A stretch of DNA of 24,000 bases from Jeongeupia sp. USM3 (GTDB lineage: Bacteria > Pseudomonadota > Gammaproteobacteria > Burkholderiales > Chitinibacteraceae), in NCBI RefSeq assembly GCF_001808185.1, contig NZ_CP017668.1, positions 1,933,648-1,957,647 of the forward strand, read 5' to 3'. The translations under genes were made by a program, and so were the position numbers. Of this stretch, positions 823 to 20,580 are shown in pieces; the first letter of the stretch is position 1; every line of letters begins with the position of its first letter. The notes below the pieces were generated by a model that ran no database searches, had not been told where the DNA came from, and saw only the letters and a list, made by a program, of their open reading frames with translations.

Positions 823-837
823 GAGGGCACCCTCCAT

Positions 838-1524: not shown

Positions 1525-1831
1525 TCCAGATCAGCGTCGTTCGCCGAAGCGGCAATCGACGCACCGAATGGCACCGCCCGCGCAACACACCGCAGTCGTC
1601 CCCAACTCGGGCCACAAGCCCGATCGAAGGCGGCCCGCCCGGTAAAAGAACTCGGATTTGCGGCATGGCCGATTGTCGAGGACCACGGTACGACGCATAC
1701 CTGCGCCGTCCCAGAACCGCTTGCACGCCAGCAAGCGATTCACCCGGTCCGAAGACTAAGCGTGTCAGCAAGTTCAACCCTGGATGGCAGGAGCTATCTA
1801 AAACATTTCACTTCGTTGTGAGGGTGATCCC

Positions 1832-3598
1832 ATGGAAATCTCAGGCGCTGAGATCGTCACCCGCTGTCTGCAGGAAGAAGGCGTTGAATTCGTCTTCGGC
1901 TATCCGGGCGGCGCGGTTCTGGAAATCTACGACGCAATATTCAAGCAAGAACAATTCAAGCACGTGCTCGTCCGGCACGAGCAGGCCGCGGTGCACGCCG
2001 CCGACGCCTACTCGCGCTCGAGCGACAAGGTCGGCGTGGCGCTCGTCACTTCCGGCCCCGGTGCCACCAATGCCATCACCGGCATCGCCACCGCCTACAT
2101 GGACTCGATCCCGATGGTCGTGCTGTCCGGCCAGGTCGGCACGCCGGTGATCGGTTCGGACGCGTTCCAGGAAGTCGACATGGTCGGCTGTTCGCGCCCG
2201 ATCGTGAAACACAACTTCCTCGTGAAGGACGTGCGCGATCTCGCCGCCACCTTCAAGAAAGCGTTCTACATCGCCGCCACCGGTCGCCCGGGCCCGGTCG
2301 TCATCGACATTCCCAAGGACGTGACGCAGGCCAAGTGCGTGTTCGAGTACCCGAAGTCGGTGTCGATCCGCAGCTACAACCCGCCGACCAAGGGCCATCC
2401 GGGCCAGATCAAGAAGGCCGCCCAGTTGCTGAGCGAGGCCAAGCGCCCGTTCATCTACGTCGGCGGCGGCGCCGTTCAGGGCGGTGCCGGTGACCTCGTC
2501 ACCGAACTGGTCAAGCACCTGAACGTGCCGTGCACCAACACGCTGATGGGCCTCGGTGCGCTCGACGGTACCGATCCGAACTTCGTCGGCATGCTCGGCA
2601 TGCACGGCACCTACGAAGCCAACCTGGCAATGCAGTACTGCGACGTACTGATCGCGATCGGCGCACGCTTCGACGACCGCGTGATCTCGGTGCCGAGCCA
2701 GTTCCTGTCGAACCCGAAGAAGATCGTCCACATCGACGTCGACCCGAGCTCGATCGCCAAGCGCGTCAAGGTCGACGTGCCCATCGTCGGCGACGTCAAG
2801 CACGTGCTGACCGACCTGATCACGGTGCTGAAGGAAACCGGCCTCAAGCCGGGCGCCGACGCCCTCGCCGGCTGGTGGAAGCAAATCGACGAATGGCGCA
2901 AGCCGAACAGCCTGCTGTACACGCCGTCGACCGAGGTGATCAAGCCGCAGCACGTGATCGAAACGCTGTGGAACGTGACCAATGGCGAAGCCATCGTCAC
3001 CTCCGACGTCGGCCAGCACCAGATGTGGGCGGCGCAGTACTACAAGTTCCGCCGGCCCAAGCAGTGGATCAACTCTGGCGGCCTCGGCACCATGGGCTTC
3101 GGCCTGCCGGCCGCGATGGGCGCGCAGCTCGCCAACCCGGATGCGCAGGTCGCCTGCGTCACCGGCGAAGGCTCGATCCAGATGAACATCCAGGAGCTGT
3201 CGACCTGCAAGCAGTACCACACGCCGGTGAAGGTGCTGAGCCTGAACAACCGCTACCTCGGCATGGTCCGCCAGTGGCAGGAGTTCTTCTACGGCACGCG
3301 CTACTCCGAGTCGTACATGGACGCGCTGCCCGATTTCGTCAAGGTTGCCGAGGCCTACGGCCACGTCGGCTTCAAGGTCGAGAACCCGGCCGACGTCGAG
3401 CCGGTGCTGAAGGAAGCCTTCGGCCCGTCGCTGAAGGAACGGCTGGTGTTCATCGACTTCCGCACCGACCAGACCGAGAACGTGTTCCCGATGATCCAGA
3501 ACGGCAAGGGCCTGAACCAGATGGACCTGCCACCGCACATGCGCGGCATGCAGCAGGTGCCGTTCGACAACAACCGTGATTACGGCAATCTCGCCTAA
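1832..3598 (+). CDS. ilvI: acetolactate synthase (acetohydroxyacid synthase) large subunit
   Basis: 588 aa. N-terminus SGAEIVTRCLQEEGVEFVFGYPGGAVLEIYDA, a ThDP motif region (GGLGTMGFGLPAAMGAQLA...GEGSIQMNIQEL), and ilvH follows directly. Confidence 0.95.
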   Translation: MEISGAEIVTRCLQEEGVEFVFGYPGGAVLEIYDAIFKQEQFKHVLVRHEQAAVHAADAYSRSSDKVGVALVTSGPGATNAITGIATAYMDSIPMVVLSGQVGTPVIGSDAFQEVDMVGCSRPIVKHNFLVKDVRDLAATFKKAFYIAATGRPGPVVIDIPKDVTQAKCVFEYPKSVSIRSYNPPTKGHPGQIKKAAQLLSEAKRPFIYVGGGAVQGGAGDLVTELVKHLNVPCTNTLMGLGALDGTDPNFVGMLGMHGTYEANLAMQYCDVLIAIGARFDDRVISVPSQFLSNPKKIVHIDVDPSSIAKRVKVDVPIVGDVKHVLTDLITVLKETGLKPGADALAGWWKQIDEWRKPNSLLYTPSTEVIKPQHVIETLWNVTNGEAIVTSDVGQHQMWAAQYYKFRRPKQWINSGGLGTMGFGLPAAMGAQLANPDAQVACVTGEGSIQMNIQELSTCKQYHTPVKVLSLNNRYLGMVRQWQEFFYGTRYSESYMDALPDFVKVAEAYGHVGFKVENPADVEPVLKEAFGPSLKERLVFIDFRTDQTENVFPMIQNGKGLNQMDLPPHMRGMQQVPFDNNRDYGNLA

Positions 3599-3610
3599 GG
3601 AGGAACGAAC

Positions 3611-5193
<1,583 letters not shown>

Positions 5194-5218
5194 TCCGGAT
5201 TCGACGCATCACCCGAAA

Positions 5219-5245
5219 CGGCCAGCATTCGCTGGCCGGTTTTTT
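5219..5245 (+). terminator. rho-independent terminator after ilvC
   Basis: CGGCCAGC-ATTC-GCTGGCCG perfect 8-bp stem followed by GTTTTTT, 26 nt after the ilvC stop. Confidence 0.8.
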
Positions 5246-5262
5246 ATGTCCGGAGCCCCCGC

Positions 5263-5835
5263 ATGTATCCGCAGCTCGACACCCCGCGCCTGTCGCTCGG
5301 CGCGTTCAATCCCGAGGATGCGTCGCGGGTACAGTCGCTCGCCGGCATGTTCGAGGTCGCCGATACCACCGCCTCGATCCCGCATCCCTACCCGGACGGT
5401 GCCGCCGCAGCATGGATCGCCCAGCATCCGACGTTCTGGCGCGCCGGGCTTGCGCTGCCGCTGGCCATCCGCCGGCGCGACGACGGGCTGCTGCTCGGCG
5501 CCATCGGCTTGCAAAGCCTCGATAGCGTCCCCGAGCTCGGTTTCTGGCTGGGTCTGCCGTTCTGGGGTCGGGGCTATGCGACCGAGGCCGCACTCGCCCT
5601 GTGCGATTTCGCCTTCGCCAGTCTGCCGATCAACCAGCTCGTCGGGCGCCATCTGGAGCGCAATCCGGCGTCCGGCCGCGTGCAGCGGAAACTCGGCATG
5701 GACCGCGTCGGCGAATCCCATGCTGTCGTTTGCGGTCGGCATCATGAAGTGGTCATCCATTACCAGATCGAGCGAGCAACATGGCAAACGCTTCACCAAA
5801 CTGACGACAAGCCGACCATAACAGTTCGGCAATGA
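5263..5835 (+). CDS. GNAT family N-acetyltransferase (RimJ/RimL-like)
   Basis: 190 aa. It opens with the TPRLSLGAFNPEDA pattern typical of this subgroup and has an acetyl-CoA motif region GFWLGLPFWGRGYATEAALALCDFAF. GGAG SD at 5252..5255. Confidence 0.8.
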   Translation: MYPQLDTPRLSLGAFNPEDASRVQSLAGMFEVADTTASIPHPYPDGAAAAWIAQHPTFWRAGLALPLAIRRRDDGLLLGAIGLQSLDSVPELGFWLGLPFWGRGYATEAALALCDFAFASLPINQLVGRHLERNPASGRVQRKLGMDRVGESHAVVCGRHHEVVIHYQIERATWQTLHQTDDKPTITVRQ

Positions 5836-6046
5836 AACGGGCATAACACCCTCGGGAAATCACCAATGTCGGGGCTGCTGGCACGGGCATAGAGTCCGCC
5901 GATCCCTCCCCGGACCGTCCCGCTGCGCCCGCCTACCCGGCGGAGCATCGCCCCCCGGTCCAGCTGACCCTATCGGGTTTCTGCCAAGTGATCCCGTCCA
6001 CCGGGCCACGGCCCGCGGCCGTCGCCCTTGCAGAAGTCGCCCCGTC

Positions 6047-7444
6047 ATGAGTCTTTTCCGTACAAAAAACATCGATGCACTGATCGCATCCACCGCCGGC
6101 AGCACCGGCGGCCTCAAGCGCGTGCTCGGCCCGCTCGACCTCGTCCTGATGGGTATCGGCGCCATCATCGGCACCGGCATCTTCGTGCTCACCGGCACCG
6201 GAGCACTGACCGCCGGCCCGGCGCTGACCCTGTCCTTCGTCGTCGCGGCGATGGCCTGCGGCTTTGCCGCACTGTGCTACGCCGAATTCGCCTCGGCCAT
6301 CCCGGTCTCGGGCTCGGTCTACACCTATTCGTACGCCACGCTCGGCGAAATCGTCGCCTGGATGATCGGCTGGGACCTGATGCTCGAATACGGCCTGGCC
6401 GCATCGGCGGTCTCGGTCGGCTGGTCGGGCTACTTCCAGTCGCTGATCGGCGGTTTCGGCCTGCATCTGCCGACGCTGCTGACCGCCGCGCCGGGCGCAG
6501 TCCCGGGCGAAACCACGCTGTTCAACCTACCTGCCTTCGCCATCATGCTGGCGATCACCGCGCTGCTGTCGGTCGGCGTGCAGGGCTTTGCCAAGCTGAA
6601 CAACCTGATGGTGGCGATCAAGGTCGGCATCGTGCTGCTGTTCATCGTCGTCGGCGCCGGCTACGTCAAGCCGGCGAACTGGGCGCCGTTCATGCCGTTC
6701 GGCTTCTCCGGCGTGTTCAGCGCCGCGGCGCTGGTGTTCTTCGCCTTCATCGGCTTCGACGCGGTCACCTCGGCCGCCGAGGAGGTGAAGAATCCGAAAC
6801 GCGACCTGCCGATCGGCATCATCGGTTCGCTGGCCGTCTGCACCGTCCTGTACGTGATCGTTTCGGCAATCATGACCGGCATCGTGCCCTACCCGAAGTT
6901 CGCCGGCATCGACCACCCGGTATCGCTGGCGCTGCAGTACGCCGGGCAGAACTGGGTTGCCGGCTTCATCGACCTCGGCGCCATCCTCGGCATGACCACG
7001 GTGATTCTGGTGATGGCCTACGGCCAGAGCCGGGTGATCTTCGCCATGAGCCGCGACGGCCTGCTGCCGCCGGTACTGTCAAAGGTCCACCCGCGCTTTT
7101 CGACGCCGTTCGTCACCACCTGGGTCATCGGCATCGTGTTTTCGCTGTTCGCCGCGCTGGTACCGCTGAACGTGCTCGCCGAGCTGATCAATATCGGCAC
7201 GCTCGCGGCATTCTCGCTGATCTCGATCGCCGTGCTGGTACTGCGCAAGACCAAGCCGGACCTGCACCGCGCGTTCCGCTGCCCGGGCGTGCCGGTCGTA
7301 CCGCTGCTGGCGGTCGGCTTCTGCGTCTTCCTGATGCTGCATCTGCAATCCATCACCTGGATGGCGTTCGGCGTCTGGCTGAGCATCGGCTTTGTCGTGT
7401 ACTTCGCCTACGCCCGCCGGCGCTCGCTGCTGCACCCTCGCTAA
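6047..7444 (+). CDS. APC-superfamily amino acid permease
   Basis: 465 aa and polytopic. N-terminal signature LKRVLGPLDLVLMGIGAIIGTGIFVLTG, with about 12 hydrophobic segments. Confidence 0.88.
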   Translation: MSLFRTKNIDALIASTAGSTGGLKRVLGPLDLVLMGIGAIIGTGIFVLTGTGALTAGPALTLSFVVAAMACGFAALCYAEFASAIPVSGSVYTYSYATLGEIVAWMIGWDLMLEYGLAASAVSVGWSGYFQSLIGGFGLHLPTLLTAAPGAVPGETTLFNLPAFAIMLAITALLSVGVQGFAKLNNLMVAIKVGIVLLFIVVGAGYVKPANWAPFMPFGFSGVFSAAALVFFAFIGFDAVTSAAEEVKNPKRDLPIGIIGSLAVCTVLYVIVSAIMTGIVPYPKFAGIDHPVSLALQYAGQNWVAGFIDLGAILGMTTVILVMAYGQSRVIFAMSRDGLLPPVLSKVHPRFSTPFVTTWVIGIVFSLFAALVPLNVLAELINIGTLAAFSLISIAVLVLRKTKPDLHRAFRCPGVPVVPLLAVGFCVFLMLHLQSITWMAFGVWLSIGFVVYFAYARRRSLLHPR

Positions 7445-7463
7445 ACGCACATTGCCCCTCAAA

Positions 7464-7486
7464 AGCCGCTCACGAGCGGCTTTTTT
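7464..7486 (+). terminator. rho-independent terminator after permease
   Basis: AGCCGCT-CACG-AGCGGCT perfect 7-bp stem followed by TTTTT. The preceding A-run can extend the stem. Confidence 0.8.
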
Positions 7487-7662
7487 ACATCCACAGAAAG
7501 AATCAATGGTTTTTCTATTGGGAAAGTACTGCTATAGAGAAACGAAAGGGACCAGCCAATTTCATGCAATCAAATGCATCATCCAGCCACTGAGCGCAAC
7601 AAGCCCGGTGCTAACGGATGCAGACGTGTCCCGGTCAGTCGAAACCCCGCTCAGGAACGTAC

Positions 7663-8991
7663 ATGGACCCACGCATCTGCACCGTCCCGCTCACGGTCAT
7701 GGCACTCTCGTGCCAGTTCGCTTTTGCCACGACACCGCCCGCCAAGCCCAAGCCCAAGACGCAGATCGAACAGCTCAGGCAAGCCAACCAGCAGCAGGCC
7801 GCCAAGCTGGCCGCGCTCGAGGCGCAGATCCAGTCACTGCAGAAGACGGTCAGCGAGCTCAACAGCAAGTTCGCACTCGTCGCCGCGCCGGCTGCGGCGC
7901 AGGTCACCCGCAATGCGGCAGCGCCCACCGTCGTCGCCAGCAACCAGGCCCCGCAGGCTGCAGTCGCCCCGCCCCGCCCGTTGCTGCCGCCGCTGCCACC
8001 GGCTGCCGAGCCGGAAACCAAGACCTCCGGCGACGCGCCCAAGAGCGTCGAAGACATCTATCAGGCAGCCAGCGGCTTCTCGAGCAGCCGTTACTCGTTC
8101 GAAGCCGGGCTGACCTACTCGCACTACGATACCCGCGAGCTCAAGCTCAACGGCTTTCTGGCGCTCGACTCGATCTTCCTCGGCAATATCAATCTCGACC
8201 GCACCAAGCAGGACACCTACACGCTGGACCTGACCGGCCGCTATTCGCCGACACCGCGCTGGCAGTTCGAGATCAGCGCGCCGATCGTTGCCAGACATGC
8301 CAATTACTTCTCGGGCGGTGCCGGCGGCGCCAGCACATCGCTCTCGGAAGGCACGGTATCGCGTTCGCCCAAGCTCGGCGACGTCACCGTCGGCGTCGCC
8401 TACAAGCTGCTGCAGGAAACCACCGACATACCGGACACGACGGTCAGCGTGAACGTGCGCACACCGACCGGCAAGGAGCCCTACGGCATCAAGCTCCGGG
8501 AAGTCGACGACAGCCAGGGCAACCTGATGATCCCGACCGAGCTGCCGACCGGCAACGGCGCCTGGGGGGTCACGACCGGCCTCGCGCTGGTGAAAACGGT
8601 CGACCCGGCGGTGATCTTCGGCAATATCGGCTACACCTATTATTTCAAGAACAGCTACGACGACATCAGCTCCAATGCCGACACCATCCAGCCCGGCGAC
8701 GTCCAGCAAGGCAGCAGCCTGCAGTTCGGCGCGGGTACGGCTTTCGCGCTGAACGAAAAGCTCAGCCTCGGCCTGTCGTATTCGCAGCAGCTCGTCCGCA
8801 AGAGCCGGGTTCGCGGCGAGGGCGGGCCCTGGTCCGACGTCACCGGCAGCGACGCCAATGTCGCCACCTTCAACGTCGGCATGACCTACGCCGTCAGCAA
8901 GAACCTATCCATCATCCCCAACCTTGCGATAGGCCTTACCCCTGAAGCGGCGAACTACGCCATTTCTCTCAAGATGCCCTACAACTTCTGA
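7663..8991 (+). CDS. fapF: FapF-like outer-membrane amyloid secretion channel
   Basis: Preferred start is ATG 7663 (AGGA 7 nt upstream); the track ORF starts at 7618. Layout: signal peptide MDPRICTVPLTVMALSCQFAFA; heptad-like coiled coil TQIEQLRQANQQQAAKLAALEAQIQSLQKTVSELNSKF; an Ala/Pro-rich linker (~55 aa); then alternating-pattern beta-strands with LGDVTVGVAYKL, TPTG and LPTGNGAWG motifs and a C-terminal aromatic residue (MPYNF). Coiled coil + linker + barrel is the architecture reported for Pseudomonas FapF. Assignment is also supported by the neighbouring fap-like genes. Confidence 0.7.
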   Translation: MDPRICTVPLTVMALSCQFAFATTPPAKPKPKTQIEQLRQANQQQAAKLAALEAQIQSLQKTVSELNSKFALVAAPAAAQVTRNAAAPTVVASNQAPQAAVAPPRPLLPPLPPAAEPETKTSGDAPKSVEDIYQAASGFSSSRYSFEAGLTYSHYDTRELKLNGFLALDSIFLGNINLDRTKQDTYTLDLTGRYSPTPRWQFEISAPIVARHANYFSGGAGGASTSLSEGTVSRSPKLGDVTVGVAYKLLQETTDIPDTTVSVNVRTPTGKEPYGIKLREVDDSQGNLMIPTELPTGNGAWGVTTGLALVKTVDPAVIFGNIGYTYYFKNSYDDISSNADTIQPGDVQQGSSLQFGAGTAFALNEKLSLGLSYSQQLVRKSRVRGEGGPWSDVTGSDANVATFNVGMTYAVSKNLSIIPNLAIGLTPEAANYAISLKMPYNF

Positions 8992-9026
8992 GATCCGATA
9001 CGCCGGATCGAGGGCGGAGATAGAGC

Positions 9027-10424
9027 ATGAGCATTGCGGACAAGTTTCTTTTTCAGGTTGGCGGCAACGTCAAGGAGCCGTGGCATTCCGTTCTCAGCGC
9101 GTCGGGCTGGCAGATGATGCACATCCCCGACGCACAGCGGCTGACCGGCGTGCGCCATGTCGGCAACGCCACGGTCGGGCTGATTTACGCCGATGAAGCA
9201 TTGCTGCCCAAGCTGGGCAAGCTGGCGTCGCAGTTCGCCAAGCACGATCTCGCCTGGATCCTGCTGGTCGAACAGCGTCTGGTCGGCAGCCCTGCGGTGG
9301 CCCGGTTCATCGACGAATTCTGTTACGACTACCACAGCCTGCCGGTCAATCCCGGTGTACTGATCGTCACGCTCGGCCGCGCGCACGGCATGGTGACGCT
9401 GCACCGCACGCAACAGACCAGCGACAACGAATACCAGAGCGAGATCATCGGCGAGCATCCGAGCATCCAGCGCATCCGCCGCGATATCCGCAAGATTGCG
9501 CCGACCGACGTCAACGTGCTGATCAGCGGCGAATCGGGCACCGGCAAGGAACTGATCGCCCGCGCGCTGCATCAGCAATCGCCGCGCGCCGACGCACCGT
9601 TCATCGCCGTCAACTGCGGCAGCCTGCCGGCCAACCTGGTGCAGTCCGAACTGTTCGGCCACGAACGTGGCGCCTTCACCGGCGCGTCGGAAAAACGCAT
9701 CGGACGGATCGAGGCCGCCGACAAGGGCACGCTGTTTCTCGACGAAATCGGCGACATGACCTTCGATACCCAGATCAACCTGCTGCGCTTTTTGCAGGAA
9801 GGGATCATCGACCGGGTTGGCGGCAACACTTCGATTCGCGTCAACGCGCGCGTCATTTCGGCCACCCACGTCGACCTGCCCAAGGCGATTGCCCTGAGTC
9901 GTTTCCGTGAAGACCTGTTCTACCGGCTCAACGTCTGCCGCCTGCACCTGCCGCCACTGCGCGAACGGCATAGCGACATCCTGCCGATTGCCCATTACCT
10001 GCTCGATTTTCACGCCGGGCGCCTCGGCGTGCCGCGCAAGCGGCTGTCGACCGAGACCGGTCGTGCCATGGTGGGTTATTCATGGCCCGGCAATGTTCGC
10101 GAGCTGACCAACCGCATCTGCCAGGGTCTGGTCATGGCCAGCGGCCGGCATATCAAACCGCAGGACATGGGGCTCAATCCGGGGGCACCGTTCGAAAGCC
10201 GGACGCTGGAAAAGGCCCGCAAGGAGGCCGAGCGCGATGCGGTCAGGATGGCGCTGGCGCTGCACAACGGCAGCAACGTCAAGGCCGCGCAGGAGCTGGG
10301 GGTTTCGCGCGCGACCTTTTACCGGCTGATGCAGCGCCACCTGGGCGTGACGCTGGAGGGCGGCGAAGCGCTGGGCACCGCGGCCGAGAATGCCGGTTCC
10401 AGCGGTGACGATGCCTCGTCGTGA
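9027..10424 (+). CDS. sigma-54-dependent transcriptional activator (bEBP) with degenerate receiver-like N-domain
   Basis: 465 aa. Walker A GESGTGKE, the sigma-54 contact loop GAFTGA (nt 9669..9686), Walker B LFLDEIGD, SWPGNVREL, and a C-terminal Fis-type HTH (NVKAAQELGVSRATFYRLMQRH). GGAG SD 9 nt upstream, 35 nt after the fapF-like stop. Confidence 0.9.
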   Translation: MSIADKFLFQVGGNVKEPWHSVLSASGWQMMHIPDAQRLTGVRHVGNATVGLIYADEALLPKLGKLASQFAKHDLAWILLVEQRLVGSPAVARFIDEFCYDYHSLPVNPGVLIVTLGRAHGMVTLHRTQQTSDNEYQSEIIGEHPSIQRIRRDIRKIAPTDVNVLISGESGTGKELIARALHQQSPRADAPFIAVNCGSLPANLVQSELFGHERGAFTGASEKRIGRIEAADKGTLFLDEIGDMTFDTQINLLRFLQEGIIDRVGGNTSIRVNARVISATHVDLPKAIALSRFREDLFYRLNVCRLHLPPLRERHSDILPIAHYLLDFHAGRLGVPRKRLSTETGRAMVGYSWPGNVRELTNRICQGLVMASGRHIKPQDMGLNPGAPFESRTLEKARKEAERDAVRMALALHNGSNVKAAQELGVSRATFYRLMQRHLGVTLEGGEALGTAAENAGSSGDDASS

Positions 10425-10436
10425 GGCACCTGCCGG

Positions 10437-11126
10437 TCAGCGCAGCCCCTGCGTCAGCGACGGAATCCAGTTCTCCACCGCAGCGCGTCCGATCGCACCG
10501 GGCTTGAGTCCGATCACGATCTGCATTGCATTGCTGACCTTGAAGCCATCACCGTTGACCTTCGCCATCTGCGACAGCTTGCCACCGCCGATCGACTGCG
10601 ATGCAACCCCGGCAAGGCCGCCATTGACCGTCAGTGCCAGCGCGTCACCATTTTCCGGAACGAGCGTGGGGACCAGCCGCCAGCCCTCGGCCATCGACGG
10701 TGTGGCCTTGAGATCACCTTCGGTCAGTTGAATCTGCGCCACGTTATGGGCCACATTGCCGCTGCCGGCAACCTGGTTCAGCTGGGCTACGCCCTTTACG
10801 TCGATTGCCTGGCCGCCGGGGAGACTGCTGACCACGCCGCCCGACGCATCGTTCAACTGGTAACGGCTGATGGTTGCACTCCGGTCCGCACCGATATTCA
10901 GCGTGACGGCACCGCCCACCTTGGCGCCATCCGGCCGGGTCCAGACCGAGGCCAGCTGCACGCCGAAATGCAGGACTTCGCCGGCGCTGAGATAACGGCC
11001 GCGCAACTGGGACAGGGCCTGGTCGTCCAGCGTGGAAAGCATCAGCGGACTCGTCGTCGGCTGCACGGCCAATGCGGGTGCGATGACCGTCGCCGCCGCA
11101 ACACCCAACCAGTATTGCTTGTTCAT
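10437..11126 (-). CDS. fapE: FapE-like secreted protein
   Basis: Preferred start is ATG 11126 (MNKQYWLGVAAATVIAPALA signal peptide, GAGGGG SD); the track start at 11150 is a TTG. It contains one copy of the amyloid-type motif GVAQLNQVAGSGNVAHNVAQIQL (10725..10793). It occupies the fifth position, after the C39 peptidase gene, as fapE does in the Pseudomonas operon. Confidence 0.55.
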   Translation of the reverse strand: MNKQYWLGVAAATVIAPALAVQPTTSPLMLSTLDDQALSQLRGRYLSAGEVLHFGVQLASVWTRPDGAKVGGAVTLNIGADRSATISRYQLNDASGGVVSSLPGGQAIDVKGVAQLNQVAGSGNVAHNVAQIQLTEGDLKATPSMAEGWRLVPTLVPENGDALALTVNGGLAGVASQSIGGGKLSQMAKVNGDGFKVSNAMQIVIGLKPGAIGRAAVENWIPSLTQGLR

Positions 11127-11150
11127 ATTCCCCTCGCTCTCCGATCGCAA

Positions 11151-11831
11151 TCAGAAAAAATCGCTGTGCAGGAAGCCGTACTCGATCAGTTCGGCGGTTG
11201 GAACGGGTTGCGCCGCATTGATCCCGGACCGGGCCGACAGCGCCGGTGCGACACGGACCAGCGGGTTGTCCACGCGGTAGCCCTGGCCCACGACCGCCAG
11301 CAGCACGCCGCTCCACTGCGACGCGAACTCTTCCATGCTGATCGCCCGGTTCCCGACCGACGGATCAGCAACGTAGACGGTATCTGCCGTGGCCTTGCGG
11401 ACCACGACGAAATGCTTGTAGCCATTGGTATCGAGCAGCGTGATTGCCGGGATCTTCAGCGCCGGCAACGCTTCCAGCGGCAATTTGTATCCTTTGCTGC
11501 GGAAACCCAGCGCTTCGACATAGCGCTTCATGTCGAGCATCGAGAAGCCGAGCTTGCGGACGGTCTCCTGGTCTGCTTCGCCCATCATGCCCTTGAGTAC
11601 GACCTCTTCAGGCGCATCGAGCCCGTAGGCGTAGCGCAGGATCGTCGCCAGGGTGGCGGCACCGCAGCTGAAATCGGTTTTTTGTTCAATGACATTGGCA
11701 AAGCGCGCCTCGCGCAGGCTTTTTACCTTGAGTTGCGGCCGGATCGCACCAGTGAAACCCGGTACCGGCATATCGGCGGCACCGGCGGGAATCGCCAGCG
11801 CCAGCAGCAGAAGAGTCAGGATCGGTTTCAT
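11151..11831 (-). CDS. fapD: FapD-like C39-family cysteine peptidase, secreted
   Basis: 226 aa with signal peptide MKPILTLLLLALAIPAGAA. C39 catalytic context QKTDFSCGAATLATILRYAYG (Cys), GYKHFVVV (His) and VYVADPSVG (Asp). Confidence 0.75.
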   Translation of the reverse strand: MKPILTLLLLALAIPAGAADMPVPGFTGAIRPQLKVKSLREARFANVIEQKTDFSCGAATLATILRYAYGLDAPEEVVLKGMMGEADQETVRKLGFSMLDMKRYVEALGFRSKGYKLPLEALPALKIPAITLLDTNGYKHFVVVRKATADTVYVADPSVGNRAISMEEFASQWSGVLLAVVGQGYRVDNPLVRVAPALSARSGINAAQPVPTAELIEYGFLHSDFF

Positions 11832-11840
11832 GATGAGCAG

Positions 11841-11866
11841 GATGCGAAGGGTTGCCCCTTCGCATC
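11841..11866 (-). other. 11-bp perfect stem-loop with GNRA (GCAA) tetraloop in the fapC-fapD spacer
   Basis: Minus-strand RNA reads GAUGCGAAGGG-GCAA-CCCUUCGCAUC, with no U-tract after it. It lies between an AGGAGG (11871..11876) and the fapD-like ATG (11831). Confidence 0.7.
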
Positions 11867-11886
11867 CACACCTCCTGCGTCGTTGG

Positions 11887-12759
11887 TTAGAACGCCGCGG
11901 CGATCGCGAGGCTGTTGGCTTGCTGGTTGCCGATACCGGCTGCCGAGTTCACCCCGATGTTGCCGACGGCGCCAATCACAGAAGCGTTGATGCCGGCAAG
12001 GTTGTCGAGGAAGAAGCCCTGGACGGTATCGTTGTGGTCGCTGATCTGCAGGCCACCGGCGGTTGCCACCGCCAGCGCGCCGTGGTTGACCGCAGCGATC
12101 GAGGCGATATTGGCTTGCTGGTTGCCGACACCTGCAGCCACGTTCGCGCCGATGTTGCCAGCCACGCCAAGAAGGCTGCCGTTAACGCCTGCGGCAGTGC
12201 TCGGCAGGATCGGCACGATGCTGAACACGAAGGAATCGTTCAGCTCGCTGTTTTGCTCGTAGTTGGCCACAGCAGTCGAGACGCCAACTGCAACCGTCCC
12301 AAAGAGCCCCGGGATCCCGAACAGGCCGCCGATGACCGGCGCCGAAGTCGTGCTGGCCAGAGCCAGCGAGTTGGCCTGCTGGTTGCCGTTGCCGGCAGCC
12401 GAGTTCATGCCCAGGTTGCCGACGACACCGATACCGGACAGGTTGATCCCGGCAGCCGAGGTGCCGACGATCAGGCTGTTGTTGTCGATGCTCTTTTGTG
12501 CGGTGAACACCGTCGCATCGGCCGCCGTGGAGCCCAGCACCAGCGCGCCGCCCAACACGAGCGCGTTCACATCGACGTTGCTGGACGCGTTGTCCACCAT
12601 GGTCTTGGTGTAGCTCAGTTCGTTACTGATCACGGCGGTATCGACGATCACCGACAGCTTGAGGGCTGCCTCGAGATCGAGGTCATCCGCCTCGGCAAAG
12701 GCAACGCCCGACATGCTGGCGAAAACGGCGGCGACTGCGGTGAGTTTCAGGGTTTTCAT
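11887..12759 (-). CDS. fapC: FapC-like major functional-amyloid subunit
   Basis: Preferred start is ATG 12759 (GAGGAGA SD 6 nt upstream); the track start at 12774 is a TTG inside that SD. Signal peptide MKTLKLTAVAAVFASMSGVAFA. Three imperfect repeats carry the GN[IL]GxNxAAGxGNQQAN core I recall from Pseudomonas FapC repeats. It is Asn/Gln/Ala/Gly/Ser-rich, has no Cys, and ends with an aromatic residue (...AIAAAF). Confidence 0.8.
   Translation of the reverse strand: MKTLKLTAVAAVFASMSGVAFAEADDLDLEAALKLSVIVDTAVISNELSYTKTMVDNASSNVDVNALVLGGALVLGSTAADATVFTAQKSIDNNSLIVGTSAAGINLSGIGVVGNLGMNSAAGNGNQQANSLALASTTSAPVIGGLFGIPGLFGTVAVGVSTAVANYEQNSELNDSFVFSIVPILPSTAAGVNGSLLGVAGNIGANVAAGVGNQQANIASIAAVNHGALAVATAGGLQISDHNDTVQGFFLDNLAGINASVIGAVGNIGVNSAAGIGNQQANSLAIAAAF
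11890..11991 (-). repeat. FapC-like repeat R3
   Basis: INASVIGAVGNIGVNSAAGIGNQQANSLAIAAAF. DNA core at 11917..11973; its first 17 nt (GGCTTGCTGGTTGCCGA on the + strand) are identical to the R2 core. Confidence 0.8.
12088..12186 (-). repeat. FapC-like repeat R2
   Basis: VNGSLLGVAGNIGANVAAGVGNQQANIASIAAV. DNA core at 12112..12168. Confidence 0.8.
12352..12447 (-). repeat. FapC-like repeat R1
   Basis: INLSGIGVVGNLGMNSAAGNGNQQANSLALAS. The DNA core at 12373..12429 is similar to the R2/R3 cores. Confidence 0.8.
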
Positions 12760-12848
12760 TTTGCTTCTCCTCAATGCTTAAGAAAGTGCTGCATGGACAA
12801 AACAAAACAACTGCCTAGGGACTACACGAGCGACCTGTCTACAGGCCG

Positions 12849-13463
12849 TTAAGAACCGGGTGGCCGCGAGAACTGCACCGCCAACGCATTGGTCGTGATA
12901 TTGCCGTTACCCGCCACCTGGTTGATCTGGAACACCCCCCGGCCGCCCGAAAAGGCCGCGGGATCGATATTCGTCTGCTGGGTCGGGATGATCTCGCCCA
13001 CCAGCTGCTCGACGACACCTGCGGTACTGCCCGCCAGCAGGCTGTCATCGGCGGCACGAATCGTCAGGGCCGAGAAGCCGGTGTGTGCGACACCGCCGAT
13101 GCCTTGCGCAATGGCCAGCTGATTGGCGCTGACATTGCCGTGGCCAGCCTGCTGATTGACGCCCAGCACGCCCCGGAATCCGGCAAATGAAGGCCCTTCG
13201 ATGCTCGCCACCGCCGCGCCGTTGGCCGGGCCCACCTTGCCGCGTTGCACCACCGAGCCGTGTGCCATCGCGGCCACCGAACCGTCCGGACTGACCGCAA
13301 TCGCCCGCATATTGGCCGCGGCATTTTCGTTGCCGGCGCTCACGTTGACCGACAGCACGCCCTGGCTCGCCATACCCGAATTGCTGATGATTGCGGTATC
13401 CAAGGACCAGGACGTTCCGGCCCAAAGGCAGCCAATCAGCGACGGCAGCAAAAGTCGTTTCAT
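12849..13463 (-). CDS. fapB: FapB-like amyloid nucleator / minor subunit
   Basis: 204 aa with an N-terminal signal sequence. Three degenerate repeats: GVLSVNVSAGNENAAANMRAIA (within 13296..13382), GVLGVNQQAGHGNVSANQLAIA (within 13107..13193) and GVFQINQVAGNGNITTNALAVQ (within 12873..12959). GGAG SD sits directly after the upstream stop. It lies immediately before the FapC-like gene, as fapB does. Confidence 0.7.
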   Translation of the reverse strand: MKRLLLPSLIGCLWAGTSWSLDTAIISNSGMASQGVLSVNVSAGNENAAANMRAIAVSPDGSVAAMAHGSVVQRGKVGPANGAAVASIEGPSFAGFRGVLGVNQQAGHGNVSANQLAIAQGIGGVAHTGFSALTIRAADDSLLAGSTAGVVEQLVGEIIPTQQTNIDPAAFSGGRGVFQINQVAGNGNITTNALAVQFSRPPGS

Positions 13464-13475
13464 TCTTGAGACTCC

Positions 13476-13937
13476 TCAGCGCGGCAGCAGTGGCGACATG
13501 GCGTTGATGACCGTGCCGCCAACACCCAGCGCAGCCCCCATGCCGCCGCCGCCGGCCGAGCGTCCCGTGCCGCCAACCGACGCACCGCCAGCCGCTGCGC
13601 CCCCCAGGGCGACACCACTGCCCAGCGGCGCATTCGCCATGCCGCGGTCCAGAGCCTGATCGGCGCGCATATTGCCCATCAGCGCATCGTCCGCACTGCC
13701 GATCGCCGAGGTCCGCGCCACTTGCGATGTCACCCGGTCCGCCGGCGATACCTGCACTTCAACGGTTTTCGGCGACTTCGGGCTGTCGGGGCGGAACGCC
13801 GTACGGGGTGCCACATTGCGTGTGATGACAATCTCGCTGCCATCGGATTCGGCATGAGCAAGCTGCGAGCCACCGGCCAGTAACGCTGCATACAGCGCGG
13901 CGGTGAGTTGCACAGACTTGAAGTTGGCTTGCCACAT
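13476..13937 (-). CDS. secreted Gly/Ala-rich protein in the FapA position (putative amyloid chaperone/regulator)
   Basis: 153 aa with signal peptide MWQANFKSVQLTAALYAALLAGGSQLAHA, GGAG SD 6-7 nt upstream, and a low-complexity C-terminal half (GSGVALGGAAAGGASVGGTGRSAGGGGMGAALGVGG). The FapA assignment rests on position only; I do not recognise sequence similarity. Confidence 0.4.
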   Translation of the reverse strand: MWQANFKSVQLTAALYAALLAGGSQLAHAESDGSEIVITRNVAPRTAFRPDSPKSPKTVEVQVSPADRVTSQVARTSAIGSADDALMGNMRADQALDRGMANAPLGSGVALGGAAAGGASVGGTGRSAGGGGMGAALGVGGTVINAMSPLLPR

Positions 13938-13973
13938 GTTCGGCTCCGGTACTTTTTGCTTGCCGACTCCAAT

Positions 13974-13988
13974 GCAGGCGCCGTGCCA
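13974..13988 (-). promoter_or_regulatory. sigma-54 (-24/-12) promoter for the fapA-E-like operon
   Basis: Minus strand reads TTGGCACGGCGCCTGCAT. This is TGGCACG-N4-CTGCA against the consensus TGGCACG-N4-TTGCW, with exact GG-N10-GC spacing and one mismatch. The GC dinucleotide lies 38 nt upstream of the ATG at 13937, leaving a ~25-nt leader with a GGAG SD. Confidence 0.65.
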
Positions 13989-13996
13989 ATGAGATT

Positions 13997-14009
13997 CAAC
14001 CCATTGATT
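13997..14009 (-). promoter_or_regulatory. IHF-consensus-like site next to the sigma-54 promoter
   Basis: Minus strand AATCAATGGGTTG matches WATCAANNNNTTR at every specified position. It overlaps a perfect 12-bp palindrome TGATTTAAATCA (14005..14016) in an AT-rich patch. It is centred only ~40 nt upstream of the predicted start site, closer than most characterised IHF sites. Confidence 0.3.
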
Positions 14010-14238
14010 TAAATCACAAACACAATTTCAAACCCGCAGCGAAAATCGCCGAACGAATCAGAAGTGAGACATGTTTTGACGATAAACCGCGGGCAGCCAC
14101 CAAAACGCGCCGATCCGGCGTCTGCGGATACCGCCGGAACCGGCGAGAACGAGGCTGGCCGCGGTTCGCAAGAAGGCGGCCGCCCTGAACCACTGAGCCT
14201 GACCGGCCAAATGCGTCTCAGAACTGAGTTAAGGCAAC

Positions 14239-14262
14239 AAAAAACCCCGCGATTGCGGGGTT
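14239..14262 (-). terminator. rho-independent terminator after psd
   Basis: Minus strand AACCCCGC-AATC-GCGGGGTT followed by TTTTTTG, ~45 nt after the psd stop. It would insulate the downstream sigma-54 promoter from psd read-through. Confidence 0.8.
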
Positions 14263-14304
14263 GTCTGGCATTCATCTCCGGCCGGACACGCGGCCGCGCG
14301 ACAT

Positions 14305-15153
14305 TCAGTCGCCGTAACCGGCCATCGCCTCGCCGAGACGAACTGCCGCGGCCGGCGTCCAGCCCGGCGCAAACCGCGGTGCCGGTTGCGGGAACAGCAG
14401 CACGACGGTCGAGCCGAGCAGGAAGCGGCCCATTTCCTCGCCTTGCTTCAGCGTGATCTGCTGGTCGCGGTAGTCCCAGTGGCGCACGGTCTTCTCGCGC
14501 GGCGGGTTGACGACACCATGCCAGACGGTCGCCATGCTGCCGACGATGGTCGCACCGACCAGCACCAGTACGAACGGGCCGTGCTCGCCTTCGAACTCGC
14601 AAACCACGCGCTCGTTGCGGGCAAACAGCCCCGGCACATGGCGTGCGGTCGCCGGGTTGACCGAGAACAGTTCGCCCGGCACGTAGATCATCTGCAGCAG
14701 CCGGCCGTCGCACGGCATGTGGATGCGGTGGTAATCCTTCGGGCTCAGGTAAATCGTCGCAAAACTGCCGTTGTCGTAACGGCTGGCCAGTTCGGCATCG
14801 CCACCGACCAGGGCCGTCGTCGAATAGCGGTGGCCCTTGGCCTGGAAGATCTGATCGTGCGCGATCGCACCGCACTGGCTGATCGCACCGTCAACCGGGC
14901 AGACCAGCGGCGAGCTCGCCAGCGGGCGGGCGCCGGGCTTGAGCGCGCGGGTGAAGAAATCGTTGAAACTGGCGTAGCTCGCGATGTCCGGATTGGCCGC
15001 CTCGGCCATGTTCACACCATACTTGGCGACGAAGCGGCGGACGATCCACGTCGTCACCTTGCCACGTGCAGGCTGCGCCACCCAGCCGGCAAATACGGTC
15101 AGCGCCAGCTTGGGCACGGCATACTGCAGCAGGACTTTCAGGCGTTCGGGCAC
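14305..15153 (-). CDS. psd: phosphatidylserine decarboxylase proenzyme
   Basis: 282 aa with a GTG start. N-terminus LKVLLQYAVPKLALTVFAGW is like E. coli Psd, it has a FNDFFTR motif, and the self-cleavage LGSTVV motif is near the C-terminus. Confidence 0.93.
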   Translation of the reverse strand: MPERLKVLLQYAVPKLALTVFAGWVAQPARGKVTTWIVRRFVAKYGVNMAEAANPDIASYASFNDFFTRALKPGARPLASSPLVCPVDGAISQCGAIAHDQIFQAKGHRYSTTALVGGDAELASRYDNGSFATIYLSPKDYHRIHMPCDGRLLQMIYVPGELFSVNPATARHVPGLFARNERVVCEFEGEHGPFVLVLVGATIVGSMATVWHGVVNPPREKTVRHWDYRDQQITLKQGEEMGRFLLGSTVVLLFPQPAPRFAPGWTPAAAVRLGEAMAGYGD

Positions 15154-15294
15154 GCGGCGCTCCGGTTCTCGTCAAACCGGCGATTGTAACGCAAGTGCCG
15201 AACCGCCTGCGCCCTCGCCCGAGGAGCGCGACCGTATTAAACTCTGCCTGTTGCACCCTTCACCGGCGGCCCCCCGCCACGAACCGAGAACACC

Positions 15295-16059
15295 ATGACC
15301 TTGAACACCAAGAGCCCGATGAACCTGCGCCGCCAGAGCATTTACCTGCTGCCCAACCTGTTCACGCTGGGTGCGCTGTTCGCCGGTTTCTACGCCATCG
15401 TCCAGGCCATGAACAACCGCTTCGAGCATGCCGCGGTGGCGATTTTCGTCGCGATGATCCTCGACGGCCTCGACGGCCGCGTTGCCCGGCTGACGCACAC
15501 GCAATCGGAGTTCGGCGCCCAGCTCGACAGCCTCTCGGACATGGTCAGTTTCGGCGTTGCGCCGGCGCTGGTCGCCTATGAATGGATGCTCAAGGACTAC
15601 GGCAAGACCGGCTGGATCATCGCCTTCGTCTACTGCGCGTGCGCGGCGCTGCGGCTGGCGCGCTTCAACGTCAATATCGGTGTCGTCGACAAGCGCTGGT
15701 TCCAGGGGCTCGCCAGCCCGGCCGCCGCCGGCATCGTCGCCGGCCTGGTCTGGAACGTGCACGAGTTCGCCGACGAGATCGAGCCCTTGACCCATCTGCT
15801 GCCGCTGGTCGCCATGGCGTTCACCCTGTTCGCAGGGCTGTCGATGGTCGTGAACGTGCGGTTCTGGAGCTTCAAGGAATTCAACGTCCGCAAGACGGTG
15901 CCGTTCTACGCGATGCTGATCATGGTGCTGGTGCTGATCGTGCTCGCCGCCAAGCCTGCGCTGGCACTGTTCCTGTTCTTTGTCGGCTATGGCGTCTCCG
16001 GTTACCTGTACTGGCTGTGGCAGTTGCTGCGGCGGAACAAGCTGCAAGCGCCACAATAG
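15295..16059 (+). CDS. pssA: CDP-diacylglycerol--serine O-phosphatidyltransferase
   Basis: 254 aa. CDP-alcohol phosphatidyltransferase motif DGLDGRVARLTHTQSEFGAQLDSLSD, multiple TM segments, and a divergent arrangement with psd. Confidence 0.92.
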   Translation: MTLNTKSPMNLRRQSIYLLPNLFTLGALFAGFYAIVQAMNNRFEHAAVAIFVAMILDGLDGRVARLTHTQSEFGAQLDSLSDMVSFGVAPALVAYEWMLKDYGKTGWIIAFVYCACAALRLARFNVNIGVVDKRWFQGLASPAAAGIVAGLVWNVHEFADEIEPLTHLLPLVAMAFTLFAGLSMVVNVRFWSFKEFNVRKTVPFYAMLIMVLVLIVLAAKPALALFLFFVGYGVSGYLYWLWQLLRRNKLQAPQ

Positions 16060-16085
16060 ACACAATGTCCAACACACTTCTGGAG

Positions 16086-16111
16086 AGCGCCCTTCTGGGC
16101 GCTTTTCTTTT
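16086..16111 (+). terminator. rho-independent terminator after pssA
   Basis: AGCGCCC-TTCT-GGGCGCT stem followed by TTTCTTTT. Confidence 0.75.
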
Positions 16112-16130
16112 GCCCAACCCCGGAAATTGT

Positions 16131-16159
16131 TTGACACAACGTCAAATAAATCGTAATTT
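16131..16159 (+). promoter_or_regulatory. candidate sigma-70 promoter upstream of leuA region
   Basis: TTGACA (perfect -35) - 17 nt - TAATTT (3/6 match to the -10 consensus). It lies between the pssA terminator and the GAGGAGA SD at 16174. Confidence 0.4.
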
Positions 16160-16185
16160 GGCAACTCGAACCTGAGGAGAACAGC

Positions 16186-16437
16186 GTGCAATTGGACATC
16201 GAACGTCTAATCGCCGAATTCGGCGGCCCCGGTCCGCTGGCGGAGGCGCTCAATACCGCCTTTCCGGACGACCCGGTGTCACGCGCAGCGATCTACAAGT
16301 GGCGCGAACGCGGCACGCTGCCGCTCTCCCAGCTCAACAAGCTCGCGCAAATCGCGGCCAGCCGCGGGCACCAATTCAATATCCAGTCTTATCTGGCCGG
16401 CACGCAGCCGGCGTCGATCACTTGGGGAGAACCGGCA
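16186..16437 (+). CDS. 84-codon Cro/YdaS-like HTH segment, in frame with and not separated by a stop from leuA
   Basis: GTG 16186 sits 5 nt after GAGGAGA. Third positions are GC-biased like real genes. The sequence [45 protein letters not shown] resembles Cro/YdaS-type HTH proteins. It is unclear whether it is translated as an N-terminal extension of LeuA. Confidence 0.4.
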
Positions 16438-17976
16438 ATGGGCGAGCGCTTGTACATTTTCGACACGACCTTGCGCGACGGCGAGCAGTCGCCCGGCGCG
16501 TCGATGACGCGGGAAGAAAAGATCCGCGTCGCCCGCCAGCTGGAAAAACTCGGTGTCGACATCATCGAGGCCGGCTTCGCCGCCGCCAGCCCCGGCGACG
16601 CCGAATCGATCCGTGCGATTGCCGAGGCCGTGAAGGAGTCGACCGTCTGTTCGCTGGCCCGCGCGAACGAGCGTGATGTGCGCGCCGCCGGCGAAGCCAT
16701 CCGCCCCGCCGCCAAGGGCCGCATCCATACCTTCATCGCGACCAGCCCGATCCATATGGAGAAGAAGCTGCGGATGAGCCCGGACGAGGTCGTCGCCGCA
16801 GCGGTCAAGGCGGTGAAGATCGCCGGCGAATACACCGCCGACATCGAATTCTCGGCCGAGGACGCACTGCGCTCGGACATCGACTTCCTCGCGCGCATTT
16901 TCGGCGAAGTGATCAAGGCCGGCGCCAGAACGATCAACGTCCCCGACACCGTCGGCTACGCCGTGCCGCAGCTGACCGAGCGTTTCTTCCGCGAGCTGAT
17001 CGCCAAGACGCCGGGCGGCGACAGCGTGATCTGGTCAGCGCACTGCCACGACGACCTCGGCATGGCCGTCGCCAACTCGCTCGCCGCGGTGATGGGCGGC
17101 GCACGCCAGGTCGAGTGCACGATCAACGGCCTCGGCGAGCGCGCCGGCAACGCCAGCCTCGAAGAAATCGTCATGGCGGTGAAGACGCGCCACGACATCT
17201 TCGGCGTCGAAACCCGCGTCGACGCCACGCAGATCGTCCCGACCAGCAAGCTCGTCTCGACCGTGACCGGCTACCCGGTGCAGCCGAACAAGGCCATCGT
17301 CGGCGCCAACGCGTTCTCGCACGAATCGGGCATCCATCAGGACGGCGTGCTCAAGCACCGCGAAACCTACGAGATCATGAGCGCCGAATCGGTCGGCTGG
17401 GCGACCAACCGGCTGACGCTGGGCAAGCTCTCGGGCCGCAACGCCTTCAAGACCAAGTTGGGCGAGCTCGGCATCGTGCTCGACAGCGAGGAAGCGCTGA
17501 ACGCCGCCTTCGCCCGCTTCAAGGTGCTGGCCGACAAGAAGCGCGAGATCTTCGACGAAGACCTGCACGCACTGGTGTCGGACGAGCTGATTTCGATCGA
17601 GCAGGAGACCTACCGGCTGACGTCGCTGAAGGTCGTGTCGGAAACCGGCGAGACGCCGGTGGCGAATCTGGTGATGACCGAAGCCGGTCAGGAACGCCGC
17701 GCCGACGCCGAAGGCGACGGTCCGGTCGATGCGGTGTTCAAGGCGATCGAATCGCTGGTGGGCACCGGCGCCGAACTGCAGCTGTACTCGGTCAACGCCA
17801 TTACCCAGGGCACCGACAGCCAGGGCGAGGTGACCGTGCGCCTGAGCCGCGACGGCCGCATCGTCAACGGTCAGGGCGCCGATACCGACATCCTCGTTGC
17901 CAGCGCCAAGGCATACATCTCGGCGGCCAACAAGCTGGCCAGCAAGACCGAACGGACCCATCCGCAACCGGTGTAA
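16438..17976 (+). CDS. leuA: 2-isopropylmalate synthase
   Basis: The canonical N-terminus [23 protein letters not shown] starts at ATG 16438 with a GGGGAGA SD 7 nt upstream, giving a typical 512 aa. HxH motif region ([18 protein letters not shown]) and a C-terminal LeuA dimerisation/regulatory domain are present. The track ORF extends upstream to 16186. Confidence 0.93.
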
Positions 17977-18308
17977 CCCTCATTCCGGACCGGCGCCACG
18001 CTGGGACGGCTGTGAAGCCGGTTCGGACATGCAATAAGAAACAGGCCAAATACTGCGCCGGAAACCGGCTTGCCCACGAGGCGAGTCCGGCGGGCTTCCC
18101 ACCACGAAGCCCGATCCGCCCGCAAGCGCAAGCCACAAGCTTGCCGTTTGACGAGGCGCCCGGCCGCTTCTTTTCTTATCTCCCAAAACGGCAAGAAAGC
18201 GAAACCGTGCCGGCAAGGCCCCCTTGGGGTCCGAAGCGTCCTGCAGGGGCTTCCTACGGTCGCAACAGCACAGGCAAGTAGGCAGCGAGCGCGGCCAACA
18301 GGACTTGC

Positions 18309-19306
<998 letters not shown>

Positions 19307-19338
19307 TTATAAAGCGATTGAAACCCTGACTCCGATCG

Positions 19339-20535: not shown

Positions 20536-20539
20536 ACAA

Positions 20540-20556
20540 GCCCCGCCGAGCGGGGC
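20540..20556. terminator. GC-rich hairpin between convergent yihY-family gene and aroB
   Basis: GCCCCGC-CGA-GCGGGGC. The T-rich flank (TTGTTCATTT) is present only on the minus strand, so it is more convincing as the aroB terminator. Confidence 0.45.
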
Positions 20557-20580
20557 CTGTCCGATCGGGCAACGGGCACC

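Follow-up and report, generated by a model that had tools for sequence, protein, structure and literature searches.

A stretch of 24,000 nt from the chromosome of Jeongeupia sp. USM3 (the window; all coordinates are numbered within it) carries six homologues of the Fap functional-amyloid proteins and a sigma-54 activator with a GAFTGA motif, encoded by seven intact open reading frames (ORFs) that span 7663..13937. Judged by sequence, the six homologues make up a complete but divergent Fap gene cluster, and the seven genes very probably work as two convergent units: fapF and a BrfA-like activator gene would be expressed from a promoter of their own, and the activator would then switch on a sigma-54-dependent fapABCDE operon. 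Proteins of Jeongeupia sp. USM3 in the database are 100% identical to the FapF-like and regulator products, and their public annotations read 'transporter' and 'sigma-54 dependent transcriptional regulator', respectively. A first reading of the DNA (the original prediction) had proposed a complete Fap-type system in which fapF is uncoupled from the subunit genes and placed beside a dedicated sigma-54 activator, and NCBIfam matches, PDB matches and the FapF fold all bore this out.

Gene map of the locus

The ORF map agreed with the predicted positions of all seven genes, including the start of the gene for the activator, a bacterial enhancer-binding protein (bEBP), 35 nt after fapF. fapF is not part of a single fapABCDEF operon, as it lies on the opposite strand from fapA-E. 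The minus-strand genes are separated, in the order fapA to fapE, by 12, 89, 55 and 0-24 nt, and the convergent fapE and bEBP genes lie 12 nt apart, stop to stop. The ATG at 11126 (MNKQYW...) is a more likely start for fapE than the TTG at 11150. The features of the locus are as follows.

7488..7662, plus strand: region upstream of fapF, putative promoter region (alignment of four Jeongeupia species)
7663..8991, plus strand: fapF, predicted outer-membrane amyloid exporter, 442 aa (NCBIfam, PDB match, AlphaFold, Foldseek)
9027..10424, plus strand: BrfA-like sigma-54 activator (bEBP), 465 aa (Pfam VpsR, Sigma54_activat and HTH_8; motifs)
10437..11126 (alternative TTG 11150), minus strand: fapE, with one Fap-type repeat at 10725-10805 (NCBIfam FapE, alignment)
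11151..11831, minus strand: fapD, predicted periplasmic C39 cysteine peptidase (Pfam Peptidase_C39, NCBIfam C39_FapD, alignment)
11887..12759, minus strand: fapC, predicted major amyloid subunit, repeats at 12352-12450, 12091-12189 and 11896-11994 (NCBIfam FapC, PDB FapC fibrils)
12849..13463, minus strand: fapB, nucleator-type subunit, repeats at 13293-13388, 13104-13202 and 12870-12968 (NCBIfam FapB)
13476..13937, minus strand: fapA, leading gene of the subunit operon, for a small chaperone-like secreted protein (weak NCBIfam chaperone_FapA match, motif, position)
13973..13988, minus strand: predicted sigma-54 (-24/-12) promoter of fapA, TGGCACGGCGCCTGCA (distance to the ATG, conservation)
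13997..14009, minus strand: tentative IHF-like site, AATCAATGGGTTG, with the -24 element on one side and the proximal palindrome on the other
14054..14071, no strand assigned: proximal of two enhancer-like palindromes, read on the operon strand as TGTCTCA-CTTC-TGATTCG, 66 nt from the -24 element on its 5' side
14214..14231, no strand assigned: distal of the two enhancer-like palindromes, TAACTCA-GTTC-TGAGACG, 226 nt from the -24 element on its 5' side
14243..14262, minus strand: predicted intrinsic terminator belonging to psd, the upstream gene, and delimiting the locus (terminator scan, sequence)

Identity of the Fap proteins

The best NCBIfam match of each of the six products was the corresponding Fap model (E from 4e-7 to 9e-147), a correspondence well outside what chance would give. 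The individual values were E=8.8e-147 for FapF, E=1.3e-77 for FapD (model C39_FapD; Pfam Peptidase_C39, E=8e-26), E=1e-23 for FapC, E=8.5e-24 for FapB (residues 5-197 of 204), E=2e-23 for FapE (over 9-223) and E=4.2e-7 for FapA (model chaperone_FapA, residues 12-150 of 153), the last being weak but specific. Similarity of the products of 11887..12759 and 12849..13463 to the FapC and FapB families, which the original prediction had singled out for checking, was found for both. The N-termini of FapA-E, read from the translations, each have the basic n-region, hydrophobic core and AxA-type site of a Sec signal peptide, as had been noted for the five minus-strand products.

FapC (290 aa) contains three imperfect repeats of the GNxGxNxAAGxGNQQAN type (aa 104-136, 191-223 and 256-288), and it aligns with the chains of solved FapC fibrils (PDB 9U4U and 9NQD, E~1e-16) with the GNxGxNxAAGxGNQQxN motif intact. 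FapB (204 aa), whose gene lies just upstream of fapC, also has three repeats, and FapE has one; exactly three repeats in FapB and FapC are the rule in nearly every Fap operon (PMC12822426). Alignment with Pseudomonas and Chromobacterium homologues showed that Cys56, His140 and Asp156 of FapD are conserved, as are the LRGRY and repeat motifs of FapE, whose gene lies downstream of fapD. FapA has the conserved N-terminal motif DG.II..R.V..R.A.R in the alignment and occupies the same operon position as Pseudomonas FapA. Translations, Pfam matches and motif positions were in keeping with the earlier description of FapB and FapC as repeat proteins, FapD as a C39 peptidase, FapE as the bearer of a single repeat and the bEBP as a GAFTGA protein.

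In the AlphaFold model, FapF consists of a signal peptide, a helix (residues 32-69), a disordered Pro/Ala linker (70-124), a plug helix (127-137) and a beta-barrel (144-441), and the elements of this single-chain model follow the order expected for FapF, namely coiled-coil helix, linker, plug helix and 12-stranded barrel. Residues 119-442 match Pseudomonas FapF (PDB 5O65/5O67, E=2e-113), the barrel being ~50% identical, and a PTG motif lies at residue 295. Foldseek superposed the model on 5O65_B with a template modelling (TM) score of 0.96 and a root-mean-square deviation of 1.6 A, and the next fold, a COG4313 channel, followed far behind. The structure prediction that had been called for on 7663..8991 therefore returned the FapF architecture and no unrelated porin.

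The sigma-54 activator

The bEBP contains the Pfam domains VpsR (7e-14), Sigma54_activat (1e-69) and HTH_8 (2e-6), with a Walker A motif at residue 168 and a perfect GAFTGA at residue 215. It aligns end to end with the bEBPs encoded beside Pseudomonas fap genes, with identities of 23% in the N-domain, 54% in the AAA+ domain and 38-40% in the helix-turn-helix (HTH) domain. A database search with the N-terminal 158 residues returned no scoring candidates; for this reason a full-length search, synteny and a tree were used to assess orthology. All 120 of the 120 best database matches of the full-length protein have the VpsR-N/AAA+/HTH architecture, and not all of them are fap-linked. The bEBPs of Chromobacteriaceae and the fap-adjacent bEBPs of Pseudomonas grouped together, to the exclusion of a Trinickia paralogue not linked to fap, in 24 of 30 neighbour-joining bootstraps; the tree and the identities used the fap-adjacent Pseudomonas bEBPs. 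Further homologues converge on a fap cluster in Acidithiobacillus and precede a distant FapF-like barrel in Nitrogeniibacter. Because of the tree grouping and of the promoter and enhancer held in common (see below), the bEBP is likely to be functionally equivalent to BrfA, and by analogy with BrfA and from its VpsR-type domain it probably binds cyclic di-GMP (c-di-GMP).

The N-terminal VpsR-type domain and AAA+ core are found as well in VpsR of Vibrio cholerae (PDB 7V2B), with which the USM3 bEBP aligns over residues 10-371, and in FleQ of Pseudomonas. All three are biofilm-matrix regulators, the USM3 protein by its predicted role. VpsR has no functional GAFTGA and works with sigma-70; unlike VpsR, the USM3 bEBP has a perfect GAFTGA and a putative sigma-54 promoter as its target.

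The fapA promoter and its enhancer-like palindromes

The predicted sigma-54 element of fapA (TGGCACGGCGCCTGCA) lies 36 nt 5' of the ATG, and homologous elements lie 33-55 nt 5' of fapA in 17 other loci, split and canonical, that is, at every readable promoter. At up to two mismatches, the window as a whole shows no excess of matches to the sigma-54 element (20 found, 12.6 expected), so the assignment of the fapA site draws on its position and its conservation. Upstream of the -24 element, every readable locus has two copies of the palindrome TGTYTCA-N4-TGAGACA, for which the chance expectation is 0.039 per 320 nt. The proximal copy lies 63-66 nt from the -24 element in 18 of 18 readable loci, split and canonical; the distal copy lies 192-226 nt from it in most loci of the Chromobacteriaceae type and 120-156 nt from it in Pseudomonas. 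One split locus, that of Chromobacterium violaceum (L013), was left out of the promoter analysis since its contig stops 168 nt 5' of fapA. Among four Jeongeupia species the promoter and enhancer elements are kept while the flanking non-coding sequence has diverged, and the core of the distal palindrome is invariant. These data point to an enhancer of fixed geometry that is common to Chromobacteriaceae-type loci and Pseudomonas.

A tentative site for integration host factor (IHF), AATCAATGGGTTG, matches the IHF consensus, WATCAANNNNTTR. Three of the four Jeongeupia species have such an IHF-like site in the interval from the proximal palindrome to the promoter. The sequence is conserved in L001 and L002 and has degenerated in L003, and Aquitalea lacks the site. 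A weak third match to the palindrome (CGTTTCATTCTTGAGACT, three mismatches) overlaps the fapA-fapB junction at 13456-13473 and is probably due to chance. In Aquitalea-type loci a third good palindrome, AGTATCAGGTATGAGACA, occurs ~1.9 kb beyond fapA (L004, 15931; L007, 16022; L021, 16073), near chemoreceptor and MerR genes; the activator may act there as well.

The fapF unit

Upstream of fapF, a block at 7510-7570 (GGAAAGTACTGCTATAGAGAAACGAAAGGGAC...TTTCATGCAA) is nearly invariant in the alignment of the four Jeongeupia species and includes an extended -10-like sequence, TGCTATAGA, at 7530-7538. The block may act as a promoter, an operator or a leader. A conserved or AT-rich region precedes fapF in the split loci generally. 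Neither the sigma-54 element nor the enhancer palindrome was found 5' of fapF in any split locus scanned. A sigma-54 element at fapF itself was considered and rejected: the nearest GG/GC pair, TGGGAAAGTACTGC, is wrongly spaced, and no locus has a match there. Rfam gave no match in the whole window or in the conserved fapF leader. The original prediction had suggested separate control of channel and cargo, and at the level of sequence this is supported because the sigma-54 promoter and the enhancer palindromes precede fapA only, and not fapF.

The activator gene is preceded by a GGAG ribosome-binding site, and neither the junction sequence nor its fold revealed a terminator in the 35-nt gap after the fapF stop. 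Each of the 14 split loci, which come from at least five genera, has 8-43 nt separating fapF from the activator gene.

Distribution of the split layout

The survey consisted of a FapF scan of one genome per species together with further contigs, and it yielded 14 loci of the Chromobacteriaceae type (the USM3 locus, L001-L010, L013, L016 and L021). Their hosts are four Jeongeupia (including USM3), five Aquitalea, a Crenobacter, a Neisseriaceae isolate, C. violaceum and two metagenomic contigs. In all 14, fapF is followed by the activator gene, and the two converge on fapE, fapD, fapC and fapB (and fapA), which run in the other direction. In the Pseudomonas loci L015, L017 and L022, fapABCDEF is followed by a bEBP gene of the same VpsR type on the opposite strand, convergent with fapF; in P. 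putida the canonical fap locus has no adjacent activator gene. The split layout with a linked sigma-54 activator is the normal arrangement in this bacterial family. The original prediction had put forward the split, convergent, bEBP-linked layout as possibly new, and this fails because the layout is common to 14 of 14 loci, the kind of finding that the prediction itself had named as contrary to novelty; the separation of fapF and the existence of BrfA were, moreover, already published.

Several of the related loci differ in content. In L001 (12269-15145), L002 and L003, which are the three other Jeongeupia species, two copies of fapC lie ~1.1 kb apart, whereas USM3 has a single fapC; the downstream copy in L001 has a duplicated sigma-54 element of its own (13496-13511) and palindromes at 13577 and 13725 with the same spacing. 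Laribacter hongkongensis HLHK9 (L014, 9001-13271) has only fapF, fapB and fapA, in the slot between ilvBHC and psd-pssA as in USM3; it has no activator, fapC, fapD or fapE, and a sigma-54 element is retained 5' of fapA. In Acidithiobacillus sp. AMEEHan (L018, 9001-19180), a VpsR-type activator gene converges on a fapA-E-like cluster, an ISL3 transposase interrupts the C39 gene of that cluster, and a GT2 glycosyltransferase gene and a gene for a PgaA-like barrel occupy the place expected for fapF. Nitrogeniibacter mangrovi (L020, 9001-18361) has an activator gene and then, on the same strand, a gene for a distant FapF-like barrel (26% identity); these converge on genes for a C39 peptidase and two ~730-aa proteins with no FapBC domain, and the cluster may represent a secretion system more remotely akin to Fap or Fil. 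At the contig end of C. violaceum L013 (15110-15277) there is an apparent start of an opposite-strand gene, and the fapA promoter and enhancer are absent from the assembly, possibly on account of an insertion sequence.

The flanks of the USM3 locus (1-7444 and 14305-24000) consist of housekeeping genes, namely ilvC, an amino-acid permease gene, psd, pssA, leuA, aroB and a gene for a PilQ-type secretin. GC content is uniform over the locus and gives no hint of recent horizontal transfer.

Comparison with known systems

Dueholm et al. (2013, PMC3792158) had already reported fapF apart from the other fap genes for Chromobacterium, a deviation shown by 4 of 16 genera. The text of that paper predicts only a -35/-10 promoter for the lone fapF and mentions no activator gene between fapF and fapE (PMC3792158). 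The C. violaceum locus L013 has a layout identical to that of USM3. In the literature searched we found no statement that the activator gene of Chromobacteriaceae shares its strand with fapF and separates fapF from fapE; what is added here is that the coupling of fapF to the activator gene is conserved across Chromobacteriaceae.

In P. fluorescens, an RpoN-dependent -24/-12 promoter of fapA was mapped by 5' rapid amplification of cDNA ends (5'-RACE), and brfA, a sigma-54 activator gene adjoining fapF, is needed for fap expression (Guo et al. 2022, PMC9207406). BrfA is described as a c-di-GMP-sensing enhancer-binding protein (Guo et al. 2024 as cited in PMC13101488; bioRxiv 10.64898/2026.01.27.702051), and in P. 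fluorescens PF07 fapF is not co-regulated with fapA-E (PMC13101488). The BrfA site of Guo et al. 2024 may correspond to the palindromes reported here or be a different sequence.

The USM3 locus shares with the Fap systems of Pseudomonas sp. UK4, P. aeruginosa and P. fluorescens the six components, the A-B-C-D-E gene order, three repeats each in FapB and FapC, a C39 FapD and a FapF fold that matches PDB 5O65. Unlike in those systems, fapF lies on the opposite strand and upstream of the activator gene rather than downstream of fapE. FapF is ~46-50% and FapB/FapC ~30-40% identical to the Pseudomonas proteins, and USM3 FapC is short at 290 aa. The activator resembles BrfA of P. fluorescens PF07/SBW25 in its VpsR-type N-domain, its AAA+ domain with GAFTGA and its HTH domain, and in a gene that adjoins fapF and converges on fap genes; a -24/-12 promoter and a two-palindrome enhancer before fapA are likewise common to both. 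In Pseudomonas, brfA stands as a gene of its own and converges with fapF; in USM3 the activator gene follows fapF on that gene's strand, after 35 nt. The locus consists of the same parts as Pseudomonas Fap with BrfA and departs from it only in where fapF lies and which way fapF points; it is not a new kind of system.

In the curli system, regulator and secretion components are encoded in the csgDEFG operon, whose regulator activates the subunit operon csgBAC (PMC12822426). The likeness to USM3 is one of design logic only, in that one operon encodes regulator and channel and its regulator would activate a subunit operon; the curli proteins are unrelated, the operons are divergent rather than convergent, and CsgD is not a sigma-54 activator.

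Proposed mechanism and alternatives

fapF and the activator gene would most likely be co-transcribed from their own promoter, one not recognised by sigma-54, and this unit would supply the outer-membrane export channel together with the regulator. The trigger is probably a high level of c-di-GMP, as for Pseudomonas BrfA. The activator would bind the two upstream palindromes and, by ATP hydrolysis and through its GAFTGA loop, open the sigma-54 complex, so that fapABCDE would be driven from the -24/-12 promoter. FapA-E would then be exported by Sec; as in Pseudomonas, FapA would restrain the subunits, FapD would process components, FapF would export them and FapB would nucleate FapC fibres.

Several observations weigh against this two-unit reading. 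All six products miss the NCBIfam equivalog cut-offs (score/cut-off: FapF 489/700, FapE 83/250, FapD 260/330, FapC 85/195, FapB 84/190, FapA 30/110). The right half of the proximal palindrome in Jeongeupia sp. USM3 is degenerate, with three mismatches, and the palindrome consensus was derived from 16 of the 18 loci on which it was scored. The N-terminal sensor domain of the bEBP is only 23% identical to the Pseudomonas type, and in Trinickia a VpsR-family bEBP gene lies away from fap, among glycosyltransferase and Flp pilus genes. Finally, a generic scan found no sigma-70 promoter within 7400-14400, so TGCTATAGA is offered as the fapF promoter as a suggestion only. Because the consensus came from 16 of the same loci, the two held-out loci were checked separately, and both show the predicted two-palindrome arrangement (gaps of 64/192 in L021 and 63/120 in L022). 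The Pseudomonas control locus L015 clears every NCBIfam Fap cut-off, which, set beside the scores above, marks the Jeongeupia locus as a divergent Fap system that is not Pseudomonas-like; since the NCBIfam models appear to be tuned to Pseudomonas-like sequences, such scores mark divergence and not exclusion.

It is unlikely that the activator gene is instead an independent unit, with a promoter in the 3' end of fapF, that regulates something other than or beyond fapABCDE and owes its placement to a rearrangement devoid of regulatory meaning. The 35-nt gap does hold a 6-bp hairpin, but this lacks a U-tract and folds unremarkably (z=-1.55), and the short gap recurs in every one of the 14 split loci. 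Other matrix loci are controlled by VpsR-family bEBPs, as in Trinickia, and the Aquitalea-type loci have their third palindrome beyond fapA; against this, the sigma-54 promoter and the palindromes lie exactly before fapA. That the locus is no functional Fap amyloid system at all, being rather a diverged relative (e.g., a Fil-type C39 peptidase and barrel) that secretes a non-amyloid repeat adhesin, is very improbable. The cut-offs missed by every product would fit such a relative, as would weak matches of FapF and FapD to pilus_FilC and pilus_FilB and the existence, in Nitrogeniibacter L020, of a cluster of bEBP, barrel and C39 peptidase genes with no FapBC-type subunits. The Fil-type assignment was rejected, however, as the Fap models far outscore the Fil models (489 vs 40 bits for FapF and 260 vs 114 bits for FapD); FapC also aligns to the solved fibril repeats, FapB and FapC have three repeats each, and the six genes keep the same relative order. 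Least credible of all is the view that the locus is in decay and has lost its expression. Decay is seen in related genomes, with fapF, fapB and fapA alone left in Laribacter, fapD split by ISL3 in Acidithiobacillus and one C. violaceum contig with no fapA promoter region, but the seven USM3 ORFs are intact with catalytic and motif residues conserved, and the four Jeongeupia species have conserved promoter and enhancer elements in diverged non-coding surroundings.

Significance

Taken together, these data replace a generic public annotation with the assignment of the genes to a complete Fap amyloid system in Jeongeupia. The BrfA/RpoN circuit of P. fluorescens probably operates in Betaproteobacteria as well, conserved enhancer architecture included. 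A split locus of this kind is a natural case of channel and cargo under different promoters and is useful for the study of how periplasmic amyloid is avoided. A wider proposal is possible, though it falls a little short of being probable: the exporter-activator operon of Chromobacteriaceae may be a 'channel first' safeguard against periplasmic amyloid, independent of but parallel to curli csgDEFG/csgBAC, and the two-palindrome enhancer (63-66 nt from the -24 element) may be the ancestral BrfA operator of Fap across Beta- and Gammaproteobacteria. If the former is true, the cargo genes would be turned on only in cells already making channel and regulator; if the latter is true, fap regulation would be predictable from sequence in hundreds of genomes.

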